Assembly (NCBI GenBank): GCA_963737655.1
Contig: CAVTTN010000002.1
Location: 5,920,001-5,984,000 of the forward strand
Reading direction: 5' to 3'
Length of the DNA: 64,000 nt
Source: an uncultured Planctomycetota bacterium
GTDB taxonomy: Bacteria; Planctomycetota; Planctomycetia; Isosphaerales; Isosphaeraceae
Shown: positions 32,261-59,531 of the stretch, in pieces
How positions within the stretch are numbered: the first letter of the stretch is position 1
How the letters are laid out: every line of letters starts with the position of its first letter
Notes under the pieces: model-generated
Database searches by the model: none
Told to the model about the DNA's origin: nothing
Seen by the model: the letters and a program-made list of their open reading frames with translations, nothing else
Position numbers and translations under genes: made by a program

Positions 32261-35200
32261 CGCCCTGAAGTTGACCGACTCGCTTCGCAGGAGGCTCGTA
32301 GAGTTCACGGCCGATGACCACCACGTCCGAGACGCCCGGCTCCGCGCCATCGCCCGGGAGATCTGGTCGGGACCTCCCGCCGAGGGCGGGTTGACGAGCG
32401 ACCTGTGGGTCGAGTCCTCGCCGCCGGCCCTGGCCTCCGTGACGAGCCTGGGGGACCTCGTCCGCCACGGCGACTTCGACGGCTGGCTGGCCGACCAGCT
32501 CGACCGGGCCGGGGCGGTCCCCGGGCACCGGCCGCTCTACGAGCATCAACTCCGGGCGATCGAGGCGGCGAGGGCCGAGGGTCTGCCCGGCAGGCCGGCC
32601 CTGGTCGTGACCGCCCCGACCGGCTCGGGCAAGACCGAGAGCTTCCTCCTGCCCGTCCTCGACGACCTCGCCCGAACCCCAAGGAACCCCGGGGTCCGGG
32701 GCATCCGTTCCCTGATCCTCTATCCGATGAACGCCCTGGTGAACGACCAGGTCGATCGGCTCCATTCCTGGCTCCGGGGCCAGGACCGGCTCACCCTCTT
32801 CCACTTCACGTCCGAGACGCCCGAGGACTACAAGGCTGCGGTGAACCGTGACCTGCCGCCCTTCGACGCGAGCCGGATGAGGACCCGCGAGCAGGCCCGG
32901 GGGCGCGAGGACCATCGGGGCGTCAAGGTCCCGGGCCACCGCGAGCGGGGCCCTCAGCCGGACGTCCTGATCACCAATTATTCGATGCTCGAATACATGC
33001 TCTGCCGTCCCCAGGATGCGATCTTCTTCGGGCCGGCGTTACGATCGATCGTCCTGGACGAGGCCCACCTCTACACCGGGACGCTCGCGGCCGAGATCGC
33101 CCTGCTGCTCCGTCGAGTCCTGGAGCGCTGCGGCCGGGCGCCCTCGGACGTCCTCCACGTCGCGACCTCGGCCACCCTGGGCCGGGGAGACTCGTCCGAG
33201 CTAGGGGCCTTCGCGGCCACCCTCTTCACCAAGCCCCGCGAACTCGTCCAGGTGATCGAAGGACGCAGCGCCCGCAACCTAATGGCCGTCCCGAGCCCGC
33301 CTCCGGTCCCCCCCGAAGCCGCCTCGGTCGCGGGCCGAGCCTGGCTGACCGGCCCGACCCTCGTCGCCGACCCCGCCGGAGAGGTCCGCCTGAACGTCTC
33401 GGATAGGGACTGCCGGGCCCTGGCCGACGACCTCCGGGCGATCGTCGGAGGCGACGAGGTAAACGCGGCGCCGGGCGCCTGCGGCGATCGCCCGGCCGTC
33501 CTCCTCCGAGACGCCTTGGAGCATGCGCCGATCCTCCATCGGATCGACGACGAATTGCACGGGAAGCGTCACATGAGGCTGGACGACCTGGCGGCTCGGG
33601 TCTGGAGACGATCCGACGACGAGGCGGTCGGGGCGACGATCAAGCTCCTCCAGGCCGGGGCGGCGGCCCGGGACTCGCCGGGGGCCTACCCGCTGCTGCC
33701 CCACCGGCTCCATACACTGGTGAGGCCCGCCGACGGGCTGGTCGTGTGCTTGAACGCGGAGTGCTCGGGCCGGTCCGACCGGAAGCTCGACGGCCTCGGC
33801 CGGGTCTGGCCGGGAAGGTCCGACCTCTGCGGATCGTGCGGGTCGGCCGCGATGAGCCTCCATCGCTGCGCCCATTGCGGCGAGTGGGGGCTCGCCGCGG
33901 TGGAGATGGACGGCCGATATCGGCCCGCCCCGCCCCGCCCGAACGAGGGCGCCGTCGTTCGATTCGCCACGATGGCCATCGACGGCGCCAAGGCGATCGG
34001 CGTGGCGCCGAGGGACGGCCGGAGGACGTCGTCGGGGGCGCTCAGGCTCTGGCCGGTCGAGGACTGCCCGAGGTGCGGGGCCTCGGCGGCCAGGGAATGG
34101 AGCCCGTTCGAGTCGGGGGCCGCGCTGTCCCTCTCGATCGTGGCCGAGACCCTGCTGGCGGGCCTGCCCGAATTCCCGTCGCCCGGGGCGATCGTGAGGC
34201 CCGCGAGGGGCCGCCGCCTCCTGGCCTTCAGCGACAGCCGGGCCGAGGCCGCCCGCCTCGGCCCGCGGCTGACCCTCCAGCACGAGATCCAGGTCGCCCG
34301 CGCCGCCATCGCCCGATTCGTCGAGGGCGGCGGATCGGCGGCCGACGCGGCGCGGATCGGCGACCTGGCCGAGGACCTCGAGACCCTGGGGCGAAGGCGC
34401 GAACGGCCGGGGCTGACCGGCCCGCAGCGCGAGGGCATCGAGCGAGACATCGCGGCGAAGGAACGCGAGCTGGAGGCCGCGCGGCAGGGCGGGACGATCG
34501 ACCAATGGACCGACTCGCTGGCGAAGAATGCCGAGAGCGGGACGATCCTCCGCGAATTGCTCGACGCCGACGCCGGGGAGAAGCATCAGGCGGCCGAATG
34601 GTCGGCGAAGTCCTGGGAGGAGAACGAGGCAGCCATCCGCAGGAGGCTACCGAACCTGATCGCCCGAGAGCTGGCGGCCCGACCTCGCGGCCGGATCTCG
34701 CTGGAGACGGCCGGGCTAGTCGAGGTCGTCTATCCGCGGCTCGACGCGGTGGCGGCCGACCCCGCGTTCCTCGGGTCGATGTCGTCGGCCGCCGCCCGGA
34801 GCGAGCTGCGAGCCGCCTGGCACGGCCTCCTGGCCGCGATCTGCGACGCGGTCCGCTCCGACGGCGCCGTCACCCTCGGCGAGGAAGGGGACCGCGATTA
34901 CCCCCTGGGCGAGAACCTGGTCGGCCGGTGGTGCTCGGCCGACGGCGAGGGGTATCGCCTGTTCCGGCTCGTCGGTACGACCGAGAGGCAGGCCCGCCGC
35001 CGGTTCGCCGCGTCGGTCCTGGAGGCCGCGGGCCTCCCCGGGCGCGAGGCGACCGAGCGGGCCCCGGACCTCCTGCGATCGGCGTTCGAGGCGATCCGAT
35101 CGTCGGGCCTGCCGTGGTTGGAGACGACGGGCCGACCGGCGGAGGGCGGGGAGGTCCCGGCGATCCGAGTCGTCTTCGCGAAGCTGGGGCTGAGGCGCCC

Positions 35201-37478
35201 CGCGACCCCATTCCTCTGCGAGACGACCGGCCATTTCTAGCCAAGGTCGGTCCTGGGCTGCGCCCCCGAGGCCGGGTGCGTGGGCCTGAGGGCCGTCGAC
35301 GACGACGCGCTCGACCGGGACCCGAGGCTGGGCCGCCTCCGTCGGGAGTTCAAGGCCTCGGAGATCTTCGCCCTGGGCCTCTGGGCCGAGGAGCATAGCG
35401 CCCAGCTCGACCCCCCGGAGAATCGTCGGCTCCAGGACCTCTTCCGCGCGGGCCTGCGGAACGTTCTGAGCTCGACGACCGCGCTGGAGCTGGGGATCGA
35501 CATCGGCGGCCTCTCGGGCGTGCTGATGGGGAACGTGCCCCCGGGCAAGGCGAATTACCTCCAGAGGGCCGGGCGGGCCGGCCGCCGGGCCGACGGATCG
35601 TCGCTCGTCGTCACGTTCGCCCGGCCCCGGCCCTACGACCGCGAGGTCTTCGGCGACCTCGGCGGCTATCTCGCCCGCCCCCTGAGGTCCCCGACGGTCC
35701 TCCTCGGCCGGGAGCGGCTTGGCCTCCGCCACGCCCGCGCCTTCCTCCTCGGCGAATTCTTCCGCGCCGTGTACCCCGAGGGCCACAAGGTCGGGGCCAT
35801 GCGTGCCTACGGCCTGATGGGCGGCTTCTGCGGGGTGGAGCGGGTCCAGTCCTTCTGGAAGTCCGGCAAGCCGCGCCCTCCGGCCTCGGCCGATCTCCCC
35901 TACGTCCTGCCGGGCGGCCTCCCGTGGAAGGCGGACGGGGAGGCCGGGCTGGCCGGCGGGTTCCTCGCATTCCTTCGCTGGGCCGAGACGTCGGAGGGGA
36001 TGACTCGCCTCTCGCAGCCCCTGGGGGCCGTGCTCCACGACACCCCGGCCGCCGCCGGATTGGCCCGGTGGGACGGATTCCTCCGGGACGTTCGCGAGAA
36101 GTTCGCCGCGGAGATCGGCCGGTGGCGGGCCGACTACGCGGACGTGCTCGCCGCGTGGAAGGCCGTCGAGGGCGACGACCCCGGCGACCGGGCGCGGGCC
36201 AATGCCGTCTGCTACCAGCTCGACACGCTCGCCGACACCACCGTGATCGAGGTCCTCGCCGATCGTCAGGTCCTGCCCCGCTACGGCTTCCCGATTGGGA
36301 TGCTCAAGCTGAGGGTGGTCGTCCCCAGGACGGATCGGTCGGGCCGGGAGCGAGGCCGCGAGGAGGACCGATTCCGACTGGAAAGGGGCGGCCTGCTCGC
36401 CCTCCGCGAGTACGCGCCCGGCTCGAAGCTCCTGGCCGGCGGCAAGGTGGTGACCTCGCGAGGCCTGATGAAGCACTGGACCGGCGCGAACGTGAACAGC
36501 GCCTTCGGGCTGAGGGGACTCGGGTCGGAATGCGAGGACGGGCACTACTCGTATCGGATCGACTCTCAGGAGTCCTTCGACGAATGCCCGGTCTGCGGGG
36601 CCGGCCCCAGGCGCCCCCCCGACGAGCTGCTCCTGCCCCGGCACGGGTTCACCAGCGCCCTGTGGGACCCCCCGCGACGACGGACCGAGGTCGAGTCCGT
36701 CGGGAGCGTCGATCGGGCCACCATCAGCTTCGCCCGAGGGGGCTCCGGGGCGGCCCGCGCCGAGGATTTCGGCGGCGTCCCCGGCCTCCTCGCGCTCTAT
36801 CGGGAGGACGGCGAGATCCTCGTCTACCACCGGGGCGAACACGCGAACGGCTTCGCCGTGTGCGTCAAGTGCGGCTACGCCGAGAGCGAGCCGAGGAGGA
36901 AGCCCGGGGAGGCGGCCGACGGGCTCGTCGGGCTGCCGAAGAGCTTCAGCCGCCATGCCTCCCTCGACGACGCCAAAGGGAAGTCCCCATGCCTGAGGTC
37001 CGGCGATCCGCCCCCCCTGCGTCGCCGGGTCCTGGCGGCGAGGGAGACGACCGACGTGCTGCTGCTGGACCTCGATCGGTGCCTGCCCGCGACGGTCGAC
37101 GACAAGGAGGCCGAGGCCGTGATCGAGACGCTCGGGCGGTCCCTGCTCGCCTCGGGCTCCAGGCTCCTGGACCTCGACACCCGGGAGCTCGGTGGCTTCC
37201 CCCTGGGCCGGGGGATCGTCCTCCACGACAACGTCCCGGGGGGCGCCGGACACGTCGGCGAGCTCTTCGAGAAGCATCGGGACCGGGACGGCGGCCGGTC
37301 CTGGCTGGAGGAGGCCCGCCGCATCCTCCGGGGCGACGACGCCCACGACGCCCGCTGCGAGACCGCCTGCCTCGACTGCCTCCTGACGTTCGACGTCCAG
37401 GACGCCATGAGCCGCGGGATGCTGAGGCGTCGGCTCGCCCTGGAGGCCCTGGAAGCGATGCTCGGAGCGGCCGGCTGA
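32238..37478 (+). pseudogene. druE: DruE-like DEAD/DEAH helicase with C-terminal DUF1998, in-frame TAG at 35238-35240
   Basis: APTGSGKTESF, YPMNALVNDQ, TNYSMLEYML, LDEAHLY, TSAT, FSDSR, EHSAQL, LELGIDIG, NYLQRAGRAGRR, LPRYGFP, DNVPGGAG, CETACLDCL. Both ORF halves are in the same frame. Confidence 0.85.
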
Positions 37479-37570: not shown

Positions 37571-37620
37571 GGTCGTTGCCGGTGCCGGGGGATCGGTGCC
37601 GTACCTCGGGGAGGCAGGCC

Positions 37621-38592
37621 GTGAAGGTCGCCACGCGGTTCGCCATGCAAAGGATCGCCGCCCTGGACCGGGCCGTCCGGGCCGGCGAGTATCGCAACGC
37701 GTCGACCCTGGCCCGGCTCCTCGAGGTCGATCGCCGGACCGTCCAGCGTGACATCGAGTTCCTCCGAGACCGACTCGGCGGCCCCCTGGAGTTCGACGCC
37801 CGGCGGAACGGCTATCGCTACGCCGACCCCGACTACCGCCTCTCCTTCCTGGACCTGGACGAGAGCGAGCTGATCGCCCTGTTCCTGGCCGAGGGGGTCC
37901 TGAGGCAGTACCGGGGCACCCCGTACGCCGCCGACCTCGCCTCGGCCTGCCGGAAGATCGCCGCCGGGACGGCCGGGACGGCGGCCGGCGAGGCCGAGGC
38001 GCACTCGTTCCGCCTGACTGCCCCGTCCCCCCTGGACCCGGGCGTCTATGAGGCCCTCCTCGCGGCGATCCGTTCCCGGTCCCGCCTGGCGATCCGCTAC
38101 TACTCGGCCTCGCGCGACGAGGAGGCCGACCGCCGGATCGACCCGTACCACGTGGCCACGATCGACGGCAGCCCCTACCTGATCGCCCATTGCCACGCCC
38201 GGGGCGAGATCCGCATGTTCGCCCCCTCCCGGATCCGGGGCCTGAAGGCGACGGGCGAGACGTTCGACCCGCCGGTTGACTTCCGCGTCGAGGAGGACCT
38301 CGACGGGTCGTTCGCCGTGCTCCGCGGCGGGCCGGCGCACCACGTCCGGCTGAGGTTCTCCGGCCTGGCCGTCCGCTACGTCCGAGAGCGGGTCTGGCAC
38401 CCCAGCCAGTCGGTCGAGGACCGGCCCGACGGCTCGTTGGACCTCACCCTGACCGTCGATCACCTCCGCGAGGTCGAGCGATTCGCGCTGTCCTGGGGAC
38501 CGGACTGCCGGGTCATCGAGCCGGAGGCCCTCCGGGACCTCGTGGCCCGGGCCCTGGCGCTCGCGGCGGCCCAGTACGGGCCCCCGCGGTGA
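37621..38592 (+). CDS. HTH-WYL-WCX transcriptional regulator
   Basis: LARLLEVDRRTVQRDIEFLRD HTH; RRIDPYH..YLIAHCHARGEIRMFAPSRI WYL domain; VIEPEALR C-terminus; GGGAGG RBS. Confidence 0.93.
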   Translation: MKVATRFAMQRIAALDRAVRAGEYRNASTLARLLEVDRRTVQRDIEFLRDRLGGPLEFDARRNGYRYADPDYRLSFLDLDESELIALFLAEGVLRQYRGTPYAADLASACRKIAAGTAGTAAGEAEAHSFRLTAPSPLDPGVYEALLAAIRSRSRLAIRYYSASRDEEADRRIDPYHVATIDGSPYLIAHCHARGEIRMFAPSRIRGLKATGETFDPPVDFRVEEDLDGSFAVLRGGPAHHVRLRFSGLAVRYVRERVWHPSQSVEDRPDGSLDLTLTVDHLREVERFALSWGPDCRVIEPEALRDLVARALALAAAQYGPPR

Positions 38593-38659
38593 TCGGCAAG
38601 CGGGACCGAGTGGCTCTGTTGTGACCCTTCTGCCGCCCCGATTCCCGAAGAGGCCCGAG

Positions 38660-41047
38660 ATGGACGAACCGCAGGAACCTCGATACGCCCACACGCTCGA
38701 GGGGGCCGGTACGGACCGGTGGCAGACAATGCAAAAGCACCTCGCCGGGGTCGCTCGTCTCGCGGGGGACCACGCCGGGGCCTTCGGCTCGCGGGCCTGG
38801 GGTGAGTTGGCCGGGCTCTGGCACGACCTGGGCAAGTACGCCGAGGATTTCCAGTCGTACCTCAGGGCGTCCTCGCGAGACCCGGCGATCCTCGATGCCT
38901 CGGTGCTCGACGAACCGCGCGGACCGGGAAAGAAGGTGGACCATTCCACCGCCGGGGCCGCGTTCGTGTATGAGAAGTGCCAGGGAAAGCTCGGGGGAAG
39001 AGAGAGGAACGAGCTTCCCCCGACGGCCTTGACGCTGGCGATGGTCATCGCCGGGCACCACGGCGGGTTACCCAAGAGGTGTCAATTTGAGCAAGAACGG
39101 TTGACCGCCGAAGAGAAAACTTCCAGGCTCCGGGCCGCCAAATCGGGCGGCGCCCCGAGCGACCTTCTGGCCCACGAGTTACCCCCGCCACCGGACTTCC
39201 TGCGGCCCGAGGCTCTGCAAGGCGCGGCGTCCTCGCGGGAGGAACGCCTGCGGTTGTTCCAACTCCGCCACGAATTCTGGACCCGCATGCTCTTCTCGGC
39301 GCTGGTCGATGCCGACAGCCTGGACACCGAGGCGTTCTGCAACCCCGAGCGGTCCCGGGTCCGAGACCGGGCGAAGGGGGACGAAACCCTGCTGACCCGC
39401 ATGAAGGAGCGGCTCGACGCCCACCTCCTCCGCGTGGCGGACCGGGGGCGGGAGCGGGCGGATTCCCTCCCCGCCGGCGCCCGCGAACGGGCCGAGGCCG
39501 TCCTGGACCTCCGGGCCCGGGTCCTCGCCGCCTGCCGAGGCCGGGCCAAGGCGCCCCCCGGCCGTCGCAGCCTCACGGTCCCGACCGGCGGCGGCAAGAC
39601 GCTCTCGGCCCTGGCCTATGCCCTCGAACATGCGATCAAGAACGGGCTCCGCCGGGTGATCGTGGTGATCCCCTTCACCAGCATCATCGACCAGACGGCC
39701 GGGGTCTATCGCGACGCCTTCGGCGACGACCTGGCCGAATTCGTGATCGAGCACCACAGCAACCTCGACCCCGAGCGAGAGGAGTACCACAGCCGCCTGG
39801 CCTCGGAGAACTGGGACGCCCCGGTGGTCGTCACCACCAGCGTCCAGTTCTTCGAGAGCCTCTTCTCCCACAAGAGGTCGGCGACGCGGAAGCTCCACAA
39901 CATCGCCCGGAGCGTGGTCGTCTTCGACGAGGTCCAGACGCTCCCCCATGAGCTTCGCGAGCCGATCTTCGACGCCCTGAACGAGCTGGTGGACCACTAC
40001 GGCGTGTCGGCCCTGTTCTGCACCGCGACCCAGCCGGCCCTGTCGCTGAAGCAGGTCGGCCTCCAGGACTTCCCGCATCTCGTTGACGTGGAAGAGGTCA
40101 TCGACGACGTCGGCGCCCAGTTCGGGGCCGTCGCAGATCGGGTGAGCGTCGAGTTTCCCGAGGACGATGGGCCCACGACCTGGGAGGCCCTGGCGGCCCG
40201 GGTCCGCGAGCACGACCGGGCCCTGGCGATCGTCCACCGTCGCGACGATGCCCGCCTCCTCGCCGAAGCGGTCGGCCCGGGGACCGTCCACCTCTCGACT
40301 CGCATGTGCCCCACCCACCGCCGGGAGGTCATCGAGCGGATCAGGGCGGACCTGGCCGCGGGCCGTCCGATCCGAGTCGTGAGCACGACTTTAATTGAAG
40401 CCGGCGTCGATCTTGACTTCCCCACGGTCTTCCGCGCGCTCGGGGGGGCCGATTCCTGCGCCCAGGCTGCTGGCCGATGCAACCGTGAAGGCCGGCTGAC
40501 CGACGCGGAAGGCTACCCCATCCCGGGCCGCCTGATCCTCTTCCGCGCCCCCAGCGACCCGCCCCCGGGCTTGAGGCTCGGACTCCAGGTGGCCGACACT
40601 CTTCGACGATCGGGCGACCCCCTGGACCTGTTCGACCCGACGACGTTCGACCGCTATTTCCGAGAGTATTTCTCGTCGATCAACGTTGACCGGACCGAGG
40701 TGACCCTCTCACGCACGGAGCGGGATTTCCCCGAGGTCGATGCCCGATTCCGCATCATCGAGGAGGACGGGAAGGCCGGCGTGGTTGTTCCCTACGGCGG
40801 CTTCGAGGCCGGCGTCCGGGACTACGAGCGCGACCCCTGCCGCCGCACGCTACGCGGACTGCAACCGTTCCTCGTCAATGCCCACGAACATGATTTGGCG
40901 TTCTTCAGGAAAGAGGGATTGATCCAAACGATCCACGAGCAGGTCCATGTGTTGAGGGCGCCGGGTCCGCAGTATGACCCGACCTACGGACTGATCGTGG
41001 ACCGGGTCGTCCCGGCCGATCCCGGGGCGCTCATCACGGACCCCTGA
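38660..41047 (+). CDS. cas3: Cas3 HD nuclease-helicase (type I-C, system 1)
   Basis: YAH, WHDLGK, IAGHHGGL, LVDADSLDT, VPTGGGKT, FDEVQ, CTATQP, QAAGRCNREG. Confidence 0.97.
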   Translation: MDEPQEPRYAHTLEGAGTDRWQTMQKHLAGVARLAGDHAGAFGSRAWGELAGLWHDLGKYAEDFQSYLRASSRDPAILDASVLDEPRGPGKKVDHSTAGAAFVYEKCQGKLGGRERNELPPTALTLAMVIAGHHGGLPKRCQFEQERLTAEEKTSRLRAAKSGGAPSDLLAHELPPPPDFLRPEALQGAASSREERLRLFQLRHEFWTRMLFSALVDADSLDTEAFCNPERSRVRDRAKGDETLLTRMKERLDAHLLRVADRGRERADSLPAGARERAEAVLDLRARVLAACRGRAKAPPGRRSLTVPTGGGKTLSALAYALEHAIKNGLRRVIVVIPFTSIIDQTAGVYRDAFGDDLAEFVIEHHSNLDPEREEYHSRLASENWDAPVVVTTSVQFFESLFSHKRSATRKLHNIARSVVVFDEVQTLPHELREPIFDALNELVDHYGVSALFCTATQPALSLKQVGLQDFPHLVDVEEVIDDVGAQFGAVADRVSVEFPEDDGPTTWEALAARVREHDRALAIVHRRDDARLLAEAVGPGTVHLSTRMCPTHRREVIERIRADLAAGRPIRVVSTTLIEAGVDLDFPTVFRALGGADSCAQAAGRCNREGRLTDAEGYPIPGRLILFRAPSDPPPGLRLGLQVADTLRRSGDPLDLFDPTTFDRYFREYFSSINVDRTEVTLSRTERDFPEVDARFRIIEEDGKAGVVVPYGGFEAGVRDYERDPCRRTLRGLQPFLVNAHEHDLAFFRKEGLIQTIHEQVHVLRAPGPQYDPTYGLIVDRVVPADPGALITDP

Positions 41048-41165
41048 GCCGGGTCTTCGGTTCGCAGTAGCGAAATTTCCAAAAATTCCCCGAACGCTCC
41101 CGGACGAGGGCCGTTCTTGGATCGGGCGAAGGTGCCCCACGCTCCTCGGGGCACCGATCGGCCGC

Positions 41166-41225
41166 GACGCGGCGGCCGACCGTCCCGGCGGCGTGTGGGT
41201 TGAAACGCAGTGGCGAAGTTTCCAA
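41166..41225 (+). ncRNA. Solo degenerate CRISPR repeat + 19-nt pseudo-spacer (candidate crRNA-like regulatory RNA)
   Basis: GTGGGTTGAAAC (41195-41206) is identical to the last 12 nt of the array-1 repeat. The following 41207-41225 matches 41064-41082 at 17/19, and that site is preceded by TTC. Confidence 0.75.
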
Positions 41226-41245
41226 TCCCCGAAAGGAGCATGAAT

Positions 41246-41917
41246 GTGACGAATGCCGAACGCACCTACCGTGTCCGAATCCGCGGCGAATGGGCCTGCT
41301 TCACCAGGCCCGAGCTCAAGACCGAGCGCGTGTCCTATCATGTGATCACGCCTTCGGCCGTCCGGGGGGCGGTCGAAGCGGTGGTCTGGAAGCCGGCGAT
41401 CCGCTGGAACGTCCACCGGATCGCGGTCCTGGCGCCGATCAAGTTCGCCTCGGTCAAACGGAACGAGGTGAACCGGGTCATCCCCACGCGGAACGCCCGG
41501 GCCCTGATGAGGGGCGAGGAGGTGCCCGACTACTTCGCCGACGAGGACCGGGCCCAGCGCAACGCGCTGGTCTTGCGGGACGTGGACTACGTCGCCGAGG
41601 TCTCGTTCGCGATGACCCGCCGCGCCGGCCCGGAAGACAACCCCCTGAAGTTCGACGAGATGTTCCGCCGCCGCCTGGAGCGGGGCCAGTACCACATGAG
41701 CCCGTACCTCGGCACCCGCGAGTTCCCCGCGATCATCGAGCCGGCCGGTGACGAGGACTGGAAGCCGATTGCCGTCGATATGGACCTCGGCCGGATGCTC
41801 CTGGACATCGACTACGGCCGCCCCAACCGCCCGGTCTTCTTCGAGGCCCGCATGAAGGGCGGCGTGATCGAGGTCCCGGCCATGAGCCGTCGCGAGGACG
41901 GCGAGGTGGGCGCATGA
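41246..41917 (+). CDS. cas5c: Cas5c (Cas5d)
   Basis: GEWACFTRPELKTERVSYHVITPSAVRG, KRNEV, PYLGTREFP. Start is GTG 41246 (AGGAG at 41234) or ATG 41240. Confidence 0.97.
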   Translation: MTNAERTYRVRIRGEWACFTRPELKTERVSYHVITPSAVRGAVEAVVWKPAIRWNVHRIAVLAPIKFASVKRNEVNRVIPTRNARALMRGEEVPDYFADEDRAQRNALVLRDVDYVAEVSFAMTRRAGPEDNPLKFDEMFRRRLERGQYHMSPYLGTREFPAIIEPAGDEDWKPIAVDMDLGRMLLDIDYGRPNRPVFFEARMKGGVIEVPAMSRREDGEVGA

Positions 41918-43731
41918 TCCTCAAGGAGCTGGCCGACCTGGCGAAGCGCGAGGGGCTGGTCGAGGACCCCGACTTCGAGCCCAAGCCCGTACGGTGGATC
42001 GTGCACATCGGCCTGGATGGGCAATTCTTCGGAATGGTCGACACGCGGGTTGAGGTCGACGGCAAGGCCCGGCCCAAGGTCCTCCAGGTGCCCCGCGCTC
42101 CGGTCCGGACGAGCGGATCGGCGGCGAACTTCCTCGTGGACAAGGCCGAATACGCCCTCGGATACGACCCCGACGAGAACCCGAGGAAGGTCCCGAAGCT
42201 GGCGCTCCACCGCTCCCTGTTCGCCGCGTCTGTCGAGACGGCGCTGACTCTGGCCCCCGACGACGCCGGCCTGAAGGCCCTGCTCGCCTTCGTCCGGGAC
42301 GACGCGGCGGTCTCCGGGGCGATCGGGGCCGTCCGGGGAAAGGCCGCCGCGAATGACCTGTTCGCGTTCCGCGCGATGCTCGGCGACGAGTCGGGCATGG
42401 TCCACGACCGCGAAGCCGTACGCTCGGCCTGGAAGGCGATGCGGCACCCGGCCGTCGAGGCGGGCGCCGACCTCCCGGAATGCCTCGTCTGCGGGGGCAG
42501 GGCCCCGGCCGTCGCCCACCCGCAGGTCAAGAGGATCCCCGGGGGCTCGACCTCGGGCATCGCGATCGTGTCGTCGAACGCAAGCGCCTTCGAGTCCTAC
42601 GGCCAGGAGGGGAACGAGGGAGCGCCGATCTGCCGCGAGTGCTCCGACTCCTACGGGACGGCCCTGAGCCGCCTGTTCCACCCGCAGTATACCGCCCCCG
42701 ACGGCCGGACCTTGCCCCGCCGGTCCTTCCGGCTCTCCGACGACACCGGGGTCGTCTACTGGGCCTCAGGAGCGGAGGAGCATCAGTTCGAAAACGAGAT
42801 CGGAGAACTCGATTTCGAGGACGCAGGCAAGGCCGGGGCGTTGTTCGAGGCCGTCCATTCCGGCAAGGGCGTCCTCCTCGGGGATACCACGCCGTTCCAC
42901 GCCCTGATCGTCACCGGGGGGCAGGGCCGGGCGACGCTTCGGAGCTACTTCCAATCGACCGTCGGCGAGGTCGCGGCGCATTTGCGGGAGTATTTCGAGG
43001 ACATCGAGATCGTCCGGCGGTTCCCGAACTCGCCGAGGTGGCCGCCGCTGTCGTGGCTGGTCCGCTCGCTGGCGGCCCAGGGGAAGTTCGAGAACGTGGC
43101 GCCGGCCCTCGCCGGCCGGCTGTTCCTGGCCATCCTCTCGGGCGAGTCGTTCCCCGCCGAGGTCCTCTCGGCGGCGATCGCCCGCATCCGCTCCGAGCCC
43201 GAAAAGCCCGACCAGGGGAAGTACAAGCACACCCGCGAACGGATGGCTCTGATCCGCGCCACGATCAACCGCTGGCTGAAGCCCCACGACCAGCGGGCCC
43301 CCGATCACCGAGTCGCCTCCCTGATCCGAAAGGAGATCCCGCCCGTGCTCGACGAGACCTGCTCCAACAATGCCTATTGCCTGGGCCGTCTGTTCGCCGT
43401 CCTGGAGAAGCTCCAGGGCGAGGCGATCGGCAAGGTCAACGCCTCGATCGCCGACCGCTTCTACGGGGCGGCCTCGGCCACTCCGGCGTCCGTCTTCGGC
43501 ACGCTCCTGCGCAAGGCACAGAGCCATCTCGCGAAGATGTCCGGGCCGTTCTACGTCCAGAAGATCCAGGAGGTGATGAACCTCCTAAGCCCGCCCGAAC
43601 CCTTCCCGACGACCCTCACCCTGGCCGAGCAGGGCCTGTTCGCCCTGGGTTACTACCAGCAACGGGCCGAACTCTGGACCAAGAAGCCCTCCCCGCAAGA
43701 CGACGCGGCCGGGTCCGAGACGAACTCCTGA
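41914..43731 (+). CDS. cas8c: Cas8c (Csd1)
   Basis: RTSGSAANFLVDKAEY, CLVCG, SAFESYG, AYCLGRLFAVLEKLQ, EQGLFALGYYQQ. Confidence 0.96.
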   Translation: MILKELADLAKREGLVEDPDFEPKPVRWIVHIGLDGQFFGMVDTRVEVDGKARPKVLQVPRAPVRTSGSAANFLVDKAEYALGYDPDENPRKVPKLALHRSLFAASVETALTLAPDDAGLKALLAFVRDDAAVSGAIGAVRGKAAANDLFAFRAMLGDESGMVHDREAVRSAWKAMRHPAVEAGADLPECLVCGGRAPAVAHPQVKRIPGGSTSGIAIVSSNASAFESYGQEGNEGAPICRECSDSYGTALSRLFHPQYTAPDGRTLPRRSFRLSDDTGVVYWASGAEEHQFENEIGELDFEDAGKAGALFEAVHSGKGVLLGDTTPFHALIVTGGQGRATLRSYFQSTVGEVAAHLREYFEDIEIVRRFPNSPRWPPLSWLVRSLAAQGKFENVAPALAGRLFLAILSGESFPAEVLSAAIARIRSEPEKPDQGKYKHTRERMALIRATINRWLKPHDQRAPDHRVASLIRKEIPPVLDETCSNNAYCLGRLFAVLEKLQGEAIGKVNASIADRFYGAASATPASVFGTLLRKAQSHLAKMSGPFYVQKIQEVMNLLSPPEPFPTTLTLAEQGLFALGYYQQRAELWTKKPSPQDDAAGSETNS

Positions 43732-43794
43732 TTCCCTACCACTCGCTTCCAATCGACTGTCCCCCGAACCCCTGGACTTAGCCGGAGCCTCCCC

Positions 43795-44826
43795 ATGTCC
43801 GAACCGTCTCAGCCCGTCGATCGCCGCCACGAGTTCGTCCTGTTCTTCGACGTCCAGGACGGCAACCCCAACGGCGACCCCGACGCCGGCAACGCCCCCC
43901 GGATCGACCCTGAGACCGGCCAGGGGCTAGTCACCGATGTCTGTTTGAAGCGCAAGGTCCGCAACTTCGTCCAGCTCACCCAGGCCGAGGGCCAGGGGGC
44001 CGAGCGGAGGCCGATCGGCGGTTACGAGATCTACGTGAAGGAGCGGGGCATCCTCGCCGCCGAGCAGAAGAAGGCCTATTCGGCGATCGGCAAGGAACCC
44101 GACAGCCGGACCGCCACCGTGAAGGAGGCCCGCGCCTGGATGTGCAAGACCTTCTTCGACGTCCGGGCCTTCGGCGCCGTGATGAGCACGGGCAAGGCGG
44201 GCGACGAGGACGCCGAGCCTAGGGCCGAGAAGGGGACGAAGGACAAGGACGCGCCCGCCAAGAAGAAGCCGGCCGGTGCGCAGAAGCACTGGAATTGCGG
44301 GCAGGTGCGGGGGCCGATCCAGCTCTCGTTCTCGCGGTCGATCGACCCGATCCTCACCCTGGAGCACGCGATCACGCGAGTGGCCCTGACCAACAAGGAC
44401 GACACCAAGCGGGGCCAGGATCTCACCGGCGAGGGCGAGGAGGCATCCAGCGGGCAGATGGGCCGGAAGTCCACGGTCCCCTACGCCCTGTATCGGGGCC
44501 ATGGCTTCGTCTCCCCCTACCTGGCGCTGGATACTGGCTTCACCCGGGCGGACCTCGACCTGTTCTGGAAGGCCCTGGTCGGCATGTTCGATCACGACCG
44601 CTCCGCCTCCCGGGGGGTGATGGCCGCCCGGACGCTGATCGTCTTCGAGCACGCCTCGGCCCTGGGCAACCACCCGGCTCACCGCCTGTTCGAGCGTGTG
44701 AAGTGCGCTCGCACGCCGGAAGACGACCCGACCCGGGCGAAGCGGCCCGCCCGGAGGTTCGAGGATTACCGGGTCACGGTCGATGAGTCGGCCATCGAGG
44801 GGGTCACGATCCGCTCGCTGATCTGA
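43795..44826 (+). CDS. cas7c: Cas7c (Csd2)
   Basis: NPNGDPDAGNAPRID, TDVCLKRKVRN, FFDVRAFGAV, GQVRGPIQ, MGRKSTVPYALY, DRSASRG. Confidence 0.97.
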   Translation: MSEPSQPVDRRHEFVLFFDVQDGNPNGDPDAGNAPRIDPETGQGLVTDVCLKRKVRNFVQLTQAEGQGAERRPIGGYEIYVKERGILAAEQKKAYSAIGKEPDSRTATVKEARAWMCKTFFDVRAFGAVMSTGKAGDEDAEPRAEKGTKDKDAPAKKKPAGAQKHWNCGQVRGPIQLSFSRSIDPILTLEHAITRVALTNKDDTKRGQDLTGEGEEASSGQMGRKSTVPYALYRGHGFVSPYLALDTGFTRADLDLFWKALVGMFDHDRSASRGVMAARTLIVFEHASALGNHPAHRLFERVKCARTPEDDPTRAKRPARRFEDYRVTVDESAIEGVTIRSLI

Positions 44827-44846
44827 GGCTCGACCGGGCCCGTCGC

Positions 44847-44889
44847 GACGAGGGGCGAGGATTGCGGACCTCGCCCCTCGTCCGCAATC
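44847..44889 (+). other. Structured intergenic element (14-bp hairpin plus alternative/pseudoknot pairing) before the cas4 RBS
   Basis: GACGAGGGGCGAGG pairs with CCTCGCCCCTCGTC; GATTGCGGAC (44860-69) is also the reverse complement of GTCCGCAATC (44880-89). Confidence 0.6.
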
Positions 44890-44902
44890 GGAGGACGAAA
44901 CG

Positions 44903-45562
44903 ATGGAGATCGACGACTACCTGCCGCTCTCGGCGCTCCAGCACCTGATCTTCTGCGAGAGGCAGTTCGCCCTGATCCACGTCGAGGGGATCTGGGCCGA
45001 GAACGAGCTGACGATCTCCGGCCGCCAGCTCCACGAGCGGGCCGACCTCCCCGGCCAGTCCCTCGGCGCCTCGATCCGCGTCTCCCGGGCCCTGCCGCTC
45101 CGCTGCGATCGCCTCCGACTCTCGGGCAGGGCCGACGTGGTCGAGTTCCACCGCGAGGCCGGCCCCGGAGGCCCCGTCTGGCGCCCCTTCCCCGTCGAGT
45201 ACAAGCGGGGACGACCCAAGAGGGGCGGGGCCGACGAGGTCCAGCTCTGCGCCCAGGCCCTCTGCCTCGAGGAGATGACCGGGCTGGACGTCCCTCGCGG
45301 GGCCCTCTTCTACGGGACCACGAGGCGGAGGAAGCCGGTCGAATTCGATGCCCCCCTCCGGGCCCGGGTCGAGGCCGCCGCCCTCAGGTGCCATGCCCTG
45401 TTCGACGCCCGCTCGACCCCGAGAGCGACGCGGGACCGACGATGCGACCGCTGCTCCCTGCTCGACTTCTGCCTGCCGGGCGTGACGGGCCCGGCAGCCC
45501 CCCCGACGATCGACCCCGCCGACCCCCGACGCTACGCCCTTGTCCCGGAGGCCCCCCCGTGA
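44903..45562 (+). CDS. cas4: Cas4
   Basis: LSALQHLIFCERQ, GRADVVEF, PVEYKRG, QLCAQALCLEEM, CDRCSLLDFC. Confidence 0.97.
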   Translation: MEIDDYLPLSALQHLIFCERQFALIHVEGIWAENELTISGRQLHERADLPGQSLGASIRVSRALPLRCDRLRLSGRADVVEFHREAGPGGPVWRPFPVEYKRGRPKRGGADEVQLCAQALCLEEMTGLDVPRGALFYGTTRRRKPVEFDAPLRARVEAAALRCHALFDARSTPRATRDRRCDRCSLLDFCLPGVTGPAAPPTIDPADPRRYALVPEAPP

Positions 45563-46593
45563 GCGCCTACCACAACACCCTCTTCGTCACCACCCCCGGC
45601 GCCTACCTCGCCAAGGACCGCGAGAACCTGGCCGTGAGGGTCGAGCACCAGACCCGGCTCGCCGTCCCCTTCCACCACCTCGGCGGGGTCGTCTGCCTCG
45701 GGCCGGTCTCGGCCAGCCCCGAGCTGATGGCCGCCTGCGCCGAGAGGGGCATCGGCCTGTCCTTCCTCGACGGGGACGGCCGGTTCCTCGCGCGGGTGGA
45801 GGGGCCGGCCTCCGGCAACGTCCTGCTCCGCCGTCGCCAGTATCGCCTCGCCGACGACCCGGTCGCCGCGGCGGGGCTGGCCCGGTCCTTCGTCGTCGGC
45901 AAGGTGGCGAACGCCCGGGCCCTGATCGTCCGCTCCGCCCGCGAGCAGAAGGACCCGGCCCGCTCGGCCATCCTGGACTCGGCCGCCACGAGGCTCTCCG
46001 AGCGGCTCGCCGACCTGGGCAGGCCCGGCCAATCGCTCGAGACCGTCCGCGGCCTCGAAGGAGAGGCCGCCGCCACTTACTTCGCCGCCTTCGACGCCAT
46101 GATCCGCGCCGCCGACCCCGCCCTCCGGTTCGCGACCAGGAGCCGCCGCCCCCCGAGGGACCCTGTCAACGCGATGCTGTCGTTCGCCTACGCCCTGGTG
46201 CGTCACGACTGCACCTCGGCCCTCGCCGCCGTGGGCCTCGACCCGGCCGTCGGCTACCTGCACGCCGACCGGCCCGGGCGGCCCTCGCTCGCCCTGGACC
46301 TGATGGAGGAGTTCCGCCACTCCCTGGCCGACCGGCTCGTCCTGGCCATGATCAACCGCGGGCAGGTCTCGCCCTCGGGGTTCGTGAGCGACCCGGCCGG
46401 CGGGGTCGCGATGGACGCCGCGATGCGCAAGGCCGTCATCGTCGCCTACCAGGAACGCAAGCAGTCGTCGCTGACCCACCCCCTGACCGGCGAGGCGACG
46501 AGCTTCGCGATCGTGCCCCACATCCAGGCCCGCCTCCTGGCCCGGACGATCCGGGGCGACCTGGACCCCTATCCGCCGTTCCTCGTCCGTTGA
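45559..46593 (+). CDS. cas1: Cas1 (I-C)
   Basis: NTLFVTTPGAYL, SGNVLLRRRQY, RGLEGEAA, DPVNAMLSFAY, LALDLMEEFR; GTG overlaps the cas4 stop. Confidence 0.97.
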   Translation: MSAYHNTLFVTTPGAYLAKDRENLAVRVEHQTRLAVPFHHLGGVVCLGPVSASPELMAACAERGIGLSFLDGDGRFLARVEGPASGNVLLRRRQYRLADDPVAAAGLARSFVVGKVANARALIVRSAREQKDPARSAILDSAATRLSERLADLGRPGQSLETVRGLEGEAAATYFAAFDAMIRAADPALRFATRSRRPPRDPVNAMLSFAYALVRHDCTSALAAVGLDPAVGYLHADRPGRPSLALDLMEEFRHSLADRLVLAMINRGQVSPSGFVSDPAGGVAMDAAMRKAVIVAYQERKQSSLTHPLTGEATSFAIVPHIQARLLARTIRGDLDPYPPFLVR

Positions 46594-46613
46594 ACCTCCG
46601 AGGGGACCCCGCC

Positions 46614-46904
46614 ATGTTCGTCCTGGTCTGCTACGACGTCTCGACCACGACCCCGGCCGGCCGTCGGCGACTGAGGAGGGTGGCTCGCCTCTGCAAAGAC
46701 TTCGGCCAGCGGGTCCAGCAGAGCGTCTTCGAGTGCGACGTCGGCGAGGCGCAATGGGTGACCCTCCGACCGGCCCTCCTCGCGGAGTTCGACCCGAACG
46801 AGGACAGTCTCCGCTTCTACCGCCTCGGGGAGGCCCCCTCGTCCCGGGCCGAGCATCACGGGGTGCGGCCCTCGGTCGATTTTCAGGGTCCGCTGATCGC
46901 CTGA
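46614..46904 (+). CDS. cas2: Cas2
   Basis: MFVLVCYDV...RRLRRVARLC..FGQRVQQSVFEC...DSLRFYRL. Confidence 0.97.
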   Translation: MFVLVCYDVSTTTPAGRRRLRRVARLCKDFGQRVQQSVFECDVGEAQWVTLRPALLAEFDPNEDSLRFYRLGEAPSSRAEHHGVRPSVDFQGPLIA

Positions 46905-47164: not shown

Positions 47165-50132
47165 GTTCCCCTCGTCGACGAGGCGAGGGGTGGGTTGAAA
47201 CAACTCGGTGAGTCCGAGGAAGCATAGCCTGACGGGTTCCCCTCGTCGACGAGGCGAGGGGTGGGTTGAAACGATATGCCTTGAAGCCACCCGCCATCCC
47301 CGACAAGTTCCCCTCGTCGACGAGGCGAGGGGTGGGTTGAAACATCGCCAGGGCGACGACCCCCCGCGCCTCCAGGGCGTTCCCCTCGTCGACGAGGCGA
47401 GGGGTGGGTTGAAACGCGTAGGCGTAGAAGTGGGTCGGCTGGCCCCGGGTTCCCCTCGTCGACGAGGCGAGGGGTGGGTTGAAACTGCTCCCGGCCGCCG
47501 GCCACATCTGGCAGATCGAGTTCCCCTCGTCGACGAGGCGAGGGGTGGGTTGAAACCTCGCGTTCGGCTGGGCCCGGGGCAAGGACATCGTTCCCCTCGT
47601 CGACGAGGCGAGGGGTGGGTTGAAACACGCCGGGGGGTGACCCCGAGGCGTCTCCGCTGGTTCCCCTCGTCGACGAGGCGAGGGGTGGGTTGAAACCCGT
47701 CCGCATCCACCGGACGACCGACCGGCATGGTTCCCCTCGTCGACGAGGCGAGGGGTGGGTTGAAACCGCGACTACGCCTACACCGCGTGCCGGTGGAGGG
47801 GTTCCCCTCGTCGACGAGGCGAGGGGTGGGTTGAAACGGTGCCTTGCGCGACGTCCAGCGAGGGCTGTCGCGTTCCCCTCGTCGACGAGGCGAGGGGTGG
47901 GTTGAAACGCGATCCCCCCCCCAACGTCGGCGGCGGCCCCGTGTTCCCCTCGTCGACGAGGCGAGGGGTGGGTTGAAACGACACGATCGCCTCCACGCCC
48001 TCCGCGCCGTACCGTTCCCCTCGTCGACGAGGCGAGGGGTGGGTTGAAACTCCCAGATCTTCGTGGCGAGGCCCTCGAACGGGCAGTTCCCCTCGTCGAC
48101 GAGGCGAGGGGTGGGTTGAAACTCGAACTGGCCCCGGCGGACGAGCTCCTCGTGCAGGTTCCCCTCGTCGACGAGGCGAGGGGTGGGTTGAAACGCCAAT
48201 TTCGTGGAATTGCTGGCCATCTCCTGGCGTTCCCCTCGTCGACGAGGCGAGGGGTGGGTTGAAACGTCGCCGGCTACGGCAACGACGGCACGAGCCTGCC
48301 GTTCCCCTCGTCGACGAGGCGAGGGGTGGGTTGAAACGTTGAGGGCCTCGGCATCGAGCCAGTGGGGCGGCGTTCCCCTCGTCGACGAGGCGAGGGGTGG
48401 GTTGAAACCTTCCAGCAGACCGAGTGTCGATCGACCCCGGCCGGTTCCCCTCGTCGACGAGGCGAGGGGTGGGTTGAAACCGGAACCAGGGCCACGACTC
48501 GGCCGAGGAAGCCCAGGTTCCCCTCGTCGACGAGGCGAGGGGTGGGTTGAAACAGTTGCGGGCCGACGTCGCTGGGGTGCGACCTGGGCGTTCCCCTCGT
48601 CGACGAGGCGAGGGGTGGGTTGAAACCAGTACAAGCAGGAGGTCCTGGACCACGGCACCGGGTTCCCCTCGTCGACGAGGCGAGGGGTGGGTTGAAACAG
48701 GCCGCGGTCAAGAAGCGGCTGAGCGGCGAAAAGTTCCCCTCGTCGACGAGGCGAGGGGTGGGTTGAAACGGTTCAGGGGTTGATAAGGCGGAGGACCTCG
48801 ACCCGTTCCCCTCGTCGACGAGGCGAGGGGTGGGTTGAAACCATGATGAGGCGGAGCCGGCAGCACCGGGAGTGGCGTTCCCCTCGTCGACGAGGCGAGG
48901 GGTGGGTTGAAACATGTCGAGCAGGAAGCCCGTCCTGCCGCCCGAGCTGTTCCCCTCGTCGACGAGGCGAGGGGTGGGTTGAAACCGGCTCTTCGACGAC
49001 ATCATGCGGGACGAGGACATGTTCCCCTCGTCGACGAGGCGAGGGGTGGGTTGAAACCTTGCGCGAGTGCAACGCCGAGATCGACCGCGAGCTGGTTCCC
49101 CTCGTCGACGAGGCGAGGGGTGGGTTGAAACCTCGAGTCGGACCGCCGGGAGGACGCCGGCGCGGGGTTCCCCTCGTCGACTAGGCGAGGGGTGGGTTGA
49201 AACCGGCCACCTGGACCCCTCGACGCGTGCCGAAGCGTTCCCCTCGTCGACGAGGCGAGGGGTGGGTTGAAACTTCGGTGGCCAACCGGAACGCGAGCAA
49301 TTCGTCGTTCCCCTCGTCGACGAGGCGAGGGGTGGGTTGAAACCCGACGGACTGGGGCCGGCGGCTTCGGGCCGGGGCGTTCCCCTCGTCGACGAGGCGA
49401 GGGGTGGGTTGAAACGGGTCCAGGTCCGGCCGGATCGCCTTCAGCTCGGCCGTTCCCCTCGTCGACGAGGCGAGGGGTGGGTTGAAACGGCCCCGACGGC
49501 TATCCCGAGATCGAGGCGTTCGCGTTCCCCTCGTCGACGAGGCGAGGGGTGGGTTGAAACTGGTCGGGCGGTCCCGGGGCCGGCCTCCGCGACGGTTCCC
49601 CTCGTCGACGAGGCGAGGGGTGGGTTGAAACATTACGGCCAGGACGGCGCGTCGGTGGCGATCGGTTCCCCTCGTCGACGAGGCGAGGGGTGGGTTGAAA
49701 CAGGTCGGCCAGGGTCTTCGCGAGGTCGGCGAGCTGGTTCCCCTCGTCGACGAGGCGAGGGGTGGGTTGAAACACCTACGCGACGACGCCGGCCCAGACC
49801 GGCTCGCGGTTCCCCTCGTCGACGAGGCGAGGGGTGGGTTGAAACGGCGACGACGAGGCGACGATCGCCGCGTTGGCGGGGTTCCCCTCGTCGACGAGGC
49901 GAGGGGTGGGTTGAAACTCGGAGGTCGAGGACGTCCAGTGGGACCGCAAGGGGTTCCCCTCGTCGACGAGGCGAGGGGTGGGTTGAAACTCGGCCACCTG
50001 GGCCCGCAACACGTCCACGGGCGGTTCCCCTCGTCGACGAGGCGAGGGGTGGGTTGAAACTATTCGACCGCCGTGAACCGCGCCGGCCTCACCGGGTTCC
50101 CCTCGTCGACGAGGCGAGGGGTGGGTTGAAAC
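47165..50132 (+). CRISPR. CRISPR array 1: 42 copies of the 37-nt repeat GTTCCCCTCGTCGACGAGGCGAGGGGTGGGTTGAAAC, 41 spacers of 33-37 nt
   Basis: Repeats counted by hand from 47165 to 50096; stem CCCCTCG/CGAGGGG plus 11-nt tail; copy 29 (49167) has G>T at 49182; possible degenerate terminal repeat at 50163-50198. Confidence 0.99.
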
Positions 50133-50425: not shown

Positions 50426-50468
50426 TTCCCAAGCTGGACGTCAGGGGTTCGAATCCCCTCGCCCGCTC
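50426..50468 (+). mobile_element. 3' half of tRNA-Gly(CCC): probable att site
   Basis: TTCCCAAGCTGGACGTCAGGGGTTCGAATCCCCTCGCCCGCT gives anticodon loop, T-arm (AGGGG-TTCGAAT-CCCCT) and 3' acceptor strand; no D-arm/5' half upstream. Confidence 0.8.
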
Positions 50469-50692
50469 TTGACTTAGGACAACAGGGCCGGTCTGGTTGC
50501 ACCCTGGGTTGCACCGGGGCTACGCGGCATCACGGGGTTACACGACCCCTGAGCGGTGCCAGCTCCAACCATGATGGGCAGCGAGAGGCAGGGGCACCGA
50601 CCCGCCGGGCGATCGGCTGGAGTCGAGTCGGTTGGAGCGGGTGCCGTGATCCTCCTGAGCCTATACCGGGCCACGGGCCAGGCTCGCCCCTT

Positions 50693-50870
50693 CGAAGATC
50701 GCATGACCGTGAGCTTAGGCCGAGAGACCTGCTGGCGGTCGCGCTGCTCAGGTGCGTTGAGAGGTTTCAATCAGCTCCCGACTCAGAGGCCGGGAGAGGC
50801 GTGAAGTCCGCTCGCATGGTCGCTCCCCTCCGCGTTTCAATCAGCTCCCGACTCAGAGGCCGGGAGAGGC
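50693..50870 (-). CRISPR. CRISPR mini-array 2: repeat GCCTCTCCCGGCCTCTGAGTCGGGAGCTGATTGAAAC, 2 perfect copies + 1 degenerate, 2 spacers
   Basis: Identical 37-mers at 50764-50800 and 50834-50870 with a 33-nt spacer; remnant aggccgagagacc at 50717-50729 lies 34 nt further on; leader 50871-51118 follows cas2. Confidence 0.9.
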
Positions 50871-51118
50871 GGCCCTTCCCCAAGTGGCTCGGGCGCAGGG
50901 ATTTGCGAACAAGCCTTCGCGGACCTCGTCGGGATGCGGCCGAGGCCCGGTCGGTTATGGGGAGAGGGACTGCGTAAGGGTTCATGGGTCATGGATTTCG
51001 GACGATCGCGGACCCCCCGGCCCGACGCCGGAACGGGGGGTCCGCGATCCGTTCGACTCTACGTGGAAGCCTTCCGACTTGTCAAAGAGCGCGGGCCGAC
51101 CGGGGCTTCGGCCTCATC

Positions 51119-51409
51119 TCAGAGGATCAGGGGGCCGTCCAGGTCGAGCGGGGCGTTGACCCCGTGGTGCTCGATTTTCCTTCGGACGGCCTCGTCCAAA
51201 GGATAGATCCTCAGGCTGTCCTCGGCCGGGTCGATCTCACCCAGCAACGCCTCCCTGAGGAGGACCCATTGCTCCGGGCCGACCAGGCACTCGAAGACCG
51301 ACTGCTGGACGCGCTGGCCGTAGTTCTTGCAGGCCGTGGCCACGCGGCGGAGGCGTCGGCGGCCGGCCGGGGTGGTCGTGGCCACGTCGTAGGTCACGAG
51401 GATCAGCAT
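51119..51409 (-). CDS. cas2: Cas2 (system 2)
   Basis: MLILVTYDV...RRLRRVATACKNYGQRVQQSVFEC...DSLRIYPL. Confidence 0.97.
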   Translation of the reverse strand: MLILVTYDVATTTPAGRRRLRRVATACKNYGQRVQQSVFECLVGPEQWVLLREALLGEIDPAEDSLRIYPLDEAVRRKIEHHGVNAPLDLDGPLIL

Positions 51410-51422
51410 GGTCGGGCGGGCC

Positions 51423-52454: not shown

Positions 52455-52487
52455 GGAGGGCGCCTCCCGGGTCGCCGACGGGGGGTT

Positions 52488-54121: not shown

Positions 54122-54163
54122 GGAACGGCGTCCTTTCTTGGTGGCGCGAGGGGGTCGTCCGGG

Positions 54164-56940: not shown

Positions 56941-57109
56941 CGCTCCTTTCGTGGCGTTGTCGGTTCGGAGGTGTCGAAGGGCGGGGCGAAGTCACGGCGA
57001 TCCGCGGCGATGCGATGGAGGTCGGGGGTCATCCGAGGGAGAGGGAGACATCCCCGGCCCGAGCGGCCTCGGGCCGGGGGCCCTTCGGTCCGCCACCGAT
57101 CGGGAGGGT

Positions 57110-59440: not shown

Positions 59441-59531
59441 GGCGTCCTCGCCCATCCGCGCCGTGGCCCGCACCGACATGGTCCGGCCTGGGTCGTCGAG
59501 CCACCCCCGCGGATGACTGCACGCAGGTTTA

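Follow-up and report, generated by a model that had tools for sequence, protein, structure and literature searches.

Organization of the type I-C locus

The window considered here is a stretch of 64,000 nucleotides from an uncultured Planctomycetota bacterium, and its first type I-C locus is arranged in the order WYL regulator, cas3, the element described below, cas5c, cas8c, cas7, cas4, cas1, cas2, and a 42-repeat array. The cas3 gene (38621..41047, plus strand) encodes an HD nuclease-helicase with the Pfam domains Cas3_HD, DEAD, and Cas3-like_C_2 and a TIGR01596 score above the cut-off. The product of cas5c (41246..41917, plus strand) scores above the cut-off of TIGR01876 and matches a pre-crRNA processing endonuclease (PDB 8dex) with an E value of 4e-57; the gene starts at ATG 41240 or GTG 41246, and the spacing to the ribosome site makes GTG 41246 likelier. 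The remainder of the operon, which is presumed to be repressed, comprises cas8c, cas7, cas4, cas1, and cas2 (41914..46904, plus strand; Pfam and NCBIfam matches). It is followed by CRISPR array 1 (47165..50132, plus strand), with 42 repeats of 37 nt and 41 spacers of 33–37 nt, for which we identified no protospacers.

The WYL-domain regulator gene (37576-38592) lies directly upstream of cas3, and further upstream, at 32238-37478, two ORFs encode a DruE-like helicase (Druantia type III). A 44-bp stretch resembling the 3′ end of a tRNA (50426-50469) is repeated exactly at positions 5903285-5903328 of the same contig (C2), which suggests that the first locus and the upstream defence genes belong to an island of about 67 kb that has integrated into the genome. 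Furthermore, 90 bp match C2 positions 7114440-7114529, and another regularly spaced array, with a period of about 71, is found elsewhere in the genome (G000:C2:2630904-2635265).

A solitary handle and guide directly upstream of cas5c

The 12-mer that ends the array-1 repeat has 43 copies in the genome (7.63 Mb), of which 42 are in the array and one is at 41195-41206. This last copy includes an 11-nt 5′ handle (41196..41206, plus strand), identical to the repeat end, and is followed by the pairing part of a guide (41207..41225, plus strand). The guide's target site (41064..41082, plus strand) lies 143 bp upstream and matches the guide at 17 of 19 positions. It is preceded by TTC (41061..41063, plus strand), the PAM of type I-C systems (10.1101/2024.12.27.630466), which begins 13 nt past the cas3 stop codon. 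Thus, as in crlRNA/CreR elements, this type I-C locus has a repeat-derived handle that is not part of the array. The original prediction described this anatomy from the letters alone, and it is borne out by the sequence in its coordinates and letters: the end of an array repeat followed by a guide, a TTC-flanked match (41061-41082) in the cas3-cas5 gap, mismatches at positions 6 and 12 only over the 19 nt, and no second repeat after the guide. It also proposed that the guide runs into the cas5 ribosome site, and in fact this site (41233-41238) corresponds to guide positions 27-32. If the guide RNA were 49-50 nt long, a length taken over from the small-RNA data on CRISIS elements (10.1101/2024.12.27.630466), its non-pairing remainder (41226..41245, plus strand) would cover both the cas5 ribosome site and ATG 41240.

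The match between guide and target stands out in the genome. When every sixth position is ignored, the best match of the guide is its own target, with a run of 19 and a TTC, followed by a run of 13 that has no PAM; we found no second good target anywhere in the genome, including the Druantia-like and WYL genes. For comparison, across the whole genome the TTC-flanked runs reached by the 41 array spacers are 8 to 17 long. A guide/target pair of this kind appeared in none of 100 shuffles of the window. On contig C2, 57 of the 7.6 million plus-strand positions have a TTC-flanked 16/16 match located 25-300 nt upstream; many of them evidently belong to tandem repeats or to another array, and 41207 is the only one that comes after a TTGAAAC/T handle.

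Covariation of guides and targets in related loci

We pooled 122 cas5 loci, namely 113 from searches of genomes of the same phylum (including the two of the window), 8 close loci out of 80 from metagenomes, and 1 out of a set of 63 relatives; the remaining loci of the last two sets were left out as distant or duplicate, and most of the 63 relatives had no clear TTC-flanked pair. After removing duplicates and short flanks, 117 loci were left; a handle within 1.5 kb is absent from 53 of them and present in the remaining 64, which give 73 handles in total. The first 17 guide positions were weighted equally, no PAM was demanded, and positions 6 and 12 received no special treatment in the scoring. 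At a threshold of 14/17, matches were obtained for 32 of the 73 handles, compared with 3 of 2190 shuffled guides. The covarying guide/target pairs that the original prediction had proposed to look for in related type I-C loci are therefore present, in 32 of the 117 loci (counting the window).

Across the 32 pairs, identity is 0.88-1.0 at positions 1-5, 7-11, and 13-16, dips to 0.31 at position 6 and 0.41 at position 12, and falls to 0.62 at position 17 and to at most 0.31 beyond it. The PAMs are TTC (17 pairs), GCC (8), TTT (3), GTC (3), and CTT (1), and all 32 targets are on the cas5 strand, upstream of cas5. These loci are kin rather than independent samples, and neither the 6/12 pattern nor the PAM was built into the search. 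Given that the guides are mostly unrelated in sequence, guide and target must have changed together many times. According to publications on such elements, every sixth base of the guide does not pair, and pairing over a short stretch leads to binding without cutting (10.1101/2024.12.27.630466; 10.1101/2023.03.10.532045; PMC10120712; 10.1101/2024.10.29.618823, in the portions available). The proposal that the guide of the window directs such binding is supported by the covarying pairs, the 6/12 pattern, PAM conservation, and the published type I-C experiments.

It could be argued that the similarity between 41064-41082 and 41207-41225 arose by chance duplication, that the element is a copy of the array leader, or that the two sites are operators of the WYL regulator encoded nearby. 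Indeed, the element and the array leader have a few words of 8-10 nt in common. Nevertheless, the combination of a handle and a PAM-flanked match is unique in the genome, no third copy of the putative operator is found near the WYL or cas3 promoter, and the handle register and the 6/12 pattern recur in relatives with unrelated sequences, so that these explanations are largely refuted and we consider them extremely improbable. An origin by duplication of the leader was also rejected as a candidate, as the similarity to the array leader is not above that of shuffles (691/2000).

The pairs follow three layouts. In most of them the guide precedes the target and is encoded on the opposite strand; in L244 and L249 it also precedes the target, on the same strand; and in the clade of the window it shares the strand of the target and follows it, immediately upstream of cas5. 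In 14 loci with the first layout (L003, L015, L017, L018, L019, L023, L025, L026, L029, L030, L032, L034, L199, and L205), the target is followed by a conserved ORF of about 75-100 codons. Those of its proteins that were tested have no Pfam or PADLOC match and fall only in unnamed Atlas clusters; DRLPY and ARKRG motifs are shared across the family. This protein, under an opposite-strand guide, is a candidate for a CRISPR-guarded toxin or regulator. A search of viral contigs for phage mimics of the handle and guide, made with one pattern, gave 0 exact matches.

All 13 targets flanked by GCC or GTC belong to two Cas5 clades (support 98; loci L006, L007, L009, L010, L033, L035, L208, L213, L215, L223, L225, L226, and L250), one of which includes the second type I-C locus of the window (51119-59479, minus strand). 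This confinement predicts a PAM other than TTC for that locus, and a GCC PAM for type I-C was not found in our literature search, which covered few subscription papers. The cas3 gene of the second locus (57310-59479, minus strand) is divided between two reading frames that overlap near 58143, and its array (50764-50871) has two repeats only. No solo guide was found within 56200-61500, and the search for targets of the array-2 spacers gave only short runs.

Sigma factor genes in the closest relatives

The nearest named relatives of the window's Cas5 come from one Paludisphaera and one Planctomycetales genome, and its clade comprises 12 non-redundant loci with Cas5 proteins that are 74-100% identical. 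Nine of the 12 carry the handle. The other three (L121, L124, and L132) have neither the handle nor the insert, leaving a cas3-cas5 gap of about 50-70 nt, and the absence of handle and target from these loci indicates that the loop is dispensable. Guides homologous to that of the window, albeit diverged, are found in L119, L120, L125, and L127.

In L013, L014, L125, and L127, guide and target vary together, and a full ORF lies between the matching target and the handle. All four ORFs match sigma-70 ECF models; the L013 and L014 proteins are above the Pfam cut-offs for region 2 or region 4, and L014 alone of the four passes that of TIGR02937. The sigma ORF of L013 ends inside the handle. Remains of such genes are seen in other members of the clade: L119 keeps the last 125 codons of a sigma gene beside a long opposite-strand ORF that has no Pfam name, L120 retains the final 46 residues of the sigma-70 protein P0011, and a fragment weakly resembling region 4 (probability 27%) is present in L126, while L012 is cut by the contig end. 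Thus, 6 of the 11 closest relatives have firm sigma cargo and one more has weak evidence for it. These genes, placed between cas3 and cas5c, are at L099:18103-18732, L101:18430-19020, L125:1874-2371, L127:1526-2083, L119:1694-2071, and L120:2-142, with the repeat unit after them and, where the DNA extends that far, the target of the guide before them. For four of the nine clade guides (L012, L119, L120, and L126) no target could be identified, the upstream DNA being cut off or interrupted; a target for the L012 guide elsewhere in G122 was sought and not counted, as the single match, in apparently coding DNA, was equalled by a control pattern that also gave one. In G118, the repeats of the array have GGAAC at their end (L100:6213 onward) and the solo unit keeps GAAAC (L099:18725-18735), the form found in the other arrays of the clade.

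The cargo sigma proteins are only about 20-36% identical to each other and form a small group, in which 10 representatives score above 100 bits before a drop to the 60-85 bits of generic ECF factors. They have no PADLOC match. In 401 genomes of the class, with 8 candidates per genome scored, high scores were obtained only at two known loci, and no orthologue was found in the genome of the window (best score 47 bits). In the Cas5 tree, the window groups with L119 and L120 with weak support (84/88), and its guide is homologous to theirs, though diverged. Together with the lack of a sigma member in the genome, this grouping makes loss of the sigma gene the simplest history, and we infer that the window locus has the appearance of a cassette in which a sigma gene formerly separated target and guide, with an order of gain and loss on the tree that is weakly supported.

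Such a history raises the question of whether guide and target are an inert relic of a cassette that formerly controlled a sigma factor. In favour of this are the sigma gene remains before the handle in L119 and L120, the nearest Cas5 relatives, the absence of the orthologue, and the ambiguity of the hairpin predicted in the window (see below). Against it, the guide has diverged and still agrees with its own target wherever pairing is expected (16 of 16 positions) and at position 18, with PAM and handle intact. As decay would not spare exactly the pairing positions, we regard an inert relic as improbable.

Expected promoter and leader of the cas5c message

A scan of the cas3-cas5 gap for sigma-70 consensus sequences found no promoter, and no plus-strand terminator was found after cas3. 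On the other side, the stretch 41061-41090 is 60% A+T, a level met by 0.5% of the 30-mers of the contig, and this, together with its position, is in keeping with a target site in or next to a promoter. As transcription in CRISIS loci starts 37-46 bp downstream of the target, the start would be expected at 41101..41110 (plus strand).

If there were no dedicated promoter, the same guide binding could act differently, with Cascade, 13 nt after the cas3 stop, serving as a roadblock to read-through from WYL-cas3, which would still be autorepression. Besides the lack of a promoter consensus and of a terminator, the gaps of about 50-70 nt in clade loci devoid of the element suggest that read-through can feed cas5. 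Nevertheless, folding of such a read-through RNA is predicted to pair 41089-41106 with 41180-41199 or to remove G41195 from the cut-site stem in another way, and in published loci the site is at a mapped promoter. We therefore consider a roadblock unlikely, and a promoter block remains our preferred reading.

The array-1 repeat folds into a 9-bp stem that ends directly before the 11-nt handle. The original prediction of a solo repeat upstream of cas5c holds for the handle, which matches the repeat end exactly, but not for the 25 nt before it, which hardly resemble the repeat. Instead, a longer substitute hairpin is predicted (41138..41195, plus strand), whose stem would close at G41195 just before the handle, at the expected Cas5c cut site. 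For RNAs with 5′ ends at 41095-41130, C41138 pairs with G41195 with a probability of 0.40-0.71 in 7 of 10 folds, the other 3 preferring a register shifted by 2 nt; for RNAs starting at 41048 or 41085, G41195 is predicted to be outside the cut-site stem. Folding thus favours the cut-site register for RNAs beginning near the expected start. A C-G closed stem is kept at the same place in the relatives with different letters (and with enlarged loops in L120 and L126), and the predicted hairpin is clearer in L119, L120, L126, and L127 than in the window. The leader folds are not clearly more stable than those of shuffles (best z -1.7), and rival predicted folds bury the handle, including by pairing it with guide positions 12-23. 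These positions are nearly complementary to the handle (41197-41229) and may hide it, a feature that is not general among the relatives. The predicted 3′ hairpin is weak (-8.7 kcal/mol over 58 nt), and Rfam has no match in the window.

Four of the nine clade units (the window, L012, L125, and L127) have the cas5 ribosome site and start codon at most 40 nt from the handle, so that both would fall inside a guide RNA of 49-50 nt; in the other five, about 80-105 nt forming a G+C-rich hairpin region separate the handle from the cas5 start.

The leader also contains a possible Arg-rich mini-ORF of 28 codons (41117..41203, plus strand), with a TTG start, GAGG 6-7 nt upstream, and a stop inside the handle, which may be there by chance. 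It could be imagined that this ORF, or a structured leader RNA, is a small repressed toxin that harms the cell when Cascade is lost, as in CreTA. The possible ribosome site and the position of the stop codon, the same as for the sigma ORF of L013, fit this idea, as does the finding that CreA represses toxin and cas genes together (10.1101/2023.03.10.532045). Nevertheless, short stop-free frames are common at 69% G+C, the mini-ORF has no Pfam or other family match, and no counterpart was noticed in relatives, which makes a guarded toxin very unlikely.

A proposed model of Cascade autorepression

The anatomy of the element, its uniqueness in the genome, and the covariation of guides and targets in relatives are observed directly in the DNA. 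From them we infer how promoter, processing, binding, repression, and translation could be connected in the Cascade system of the window. A promoter in the cas3-cas5 gap, overlapping 41061-41082 or just downstream of it, would make the cas5-8c-7 message, whose leader would fold into the long hairpin 41138-41195. Cas5c would cut at its base, producing the 11-nt handle, and Cascade would assemble on the next 35-39 nt. Loaded with this guide, Cascade would pair over up to 19 bp at the TTC-flanked site, too short to trigger Cas3, and block the promoter. This would constitute a negative feedback in which spare Cascade lowers the supply of Cascade and guide, and more crRNA or an anti-CRISPR would lift the repression. 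Moreover, as the cas5 ribosome site lies within the guide footprint, every guide produced probably costs one translatable cas5 message.

We think it more probable than not that Cascade with the solo guide binds the site and blocks the promoter for cas5-8c-7; adding the possibility of a roadblock, which has the same outcome, it is quite likely that the element is a functional device for Cascade autorepression.

A more speculative idea is that, in this clade, a dedicated ECF-type sigma factor, with its gene between cas3 and cas5, is kept repressed by Cascade through a guide embedded in the leader, the window retaining the stripped core. An anti-CRISPR or a surge of crRNA would then remove Cascade, and the sigma factor would appear and rewire transcription, leading to either a defence regulon or growth arrest through competition for RNA polymerase. 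We hold this only tentatively, as a possibility that is somewhat less likely than its negation. If true, RNA-guided surveillance would trigger a sigma switch without an anti-sigma protein, and in the stripped core the excision of the guide would also remove the cas5 ribosome site, so that one element would repress both transcription and translation.

Comparison with known systems

Type I-C CRISIS loci (Nezha, Gabija, sole-Sir2, and others) have solitary repeat units directly before cas5c, which, according to small-RNA sequencing and reporters, yield guides of 48-50 nt with an 11-nt handle. These guides, mismatched at positions 6 and 12, act on TTC/TTA-flanked sites to repress the promoters there, and Neisseria-type I-C elements are processed and repress 4.8- to 60-fold (10.1101/2024.12.27.630466, in the portions available). 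The element of the window is similar in having a single repeat-like unit before cas5c on the same strand, an 11-nt handle after a hairpin (here predicted), a partial match with 6/12 mismatches and a TTC PAM upstream in the cas3-cas5 gap, and no second repeat, as in most CRISIS loci. In contrast, CRISIS loci have an immune gene between target and repeat unit, and in the window these are separated by 143 bp with no long ORF and no non-cas immune gene, just the possible 28-codon ORF; lacking immune cargo, the element is not a CRISIS member. The closest relatives of the window also differ from CRISIS in carrying ECF-type sigma cargo instead of immune cargo, and the word "sigma" is absent from the main text of the CRISIS paper, as far as it was available.

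CreR has been defined as a Cas-regulating RNA, with type I-C cases predicted and I-B, I-E, and V-A cases tested (10.1101/2023.03.10.532045, in part); that of the window belongs to I-C. As in CreR, there is a degenerate repeat with a guide, a partial PAM-flanked match by the promoter of the effector genes (here putative), and no toxin gene, but I-E CreR has two repeat-like parts and the window has one, inside the leader of the message presumed to be repressed. Among 1206 I-C loci surveyed, repeat-like sequences were reported in 34% and mini-arrays in 7%; the mini-arrays were interpreted as transcribed opposite to cas3, with the target downstream (PMC10120712, in part), in contrast to the same-strand guide and upstream target described here. 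Viral mimics are aimed at I-C loci, and Neisseria I-C loci are Cracr targets (10.1101/2024.10.29.618823, in part). CreTA resembles the element of the window in its short PAM-flanked pairing, which gives repression instead of cutting there and would do so here, and CreA also represses cas8 (10.1101/2023.03.10.532045, in part), but the subtype differs and the only toxin candidate of the window is the mini-ORF or leader RNA. As for the sigma factors, in the DdvS system an ECF sigma linked to CRISPR-Cas expression, as in the relatives of the window, is held by an anti-sigma and controls cas genes (PMC6061681, in part), whereas in the relatives Cascade is predicted to control the sigma gene. Neither a guide-controlled sigma factor nor processing of a cas5 leader was found in the literature search, which covered few subscription papers.

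Thus, the element of the window very probably works like CreR with the anatomy of CRISIS repeat units, in a layout that has already been published. What distinguishes it from the cases in the literature examined is the absence of cargo, the cas5 ribosome site within the guide footprint (4 of 9 clade loci), and sigma cargo in at least 6 of 11 closest relatives. It offers a compact, testable case of cargo-less type I-C autorepression, the literature examined (in part) having tested other subtypes or cases with immune cargo. It also opens other leads, namely a sigma gene apparently under CRISPR control, a protein of about 75-100 amino acids apparently controlled in a similar way in 14 other loci, and guide/target pairs from which a GCC/GTC PAM is predicted for two Cas5 clades of type I-C.
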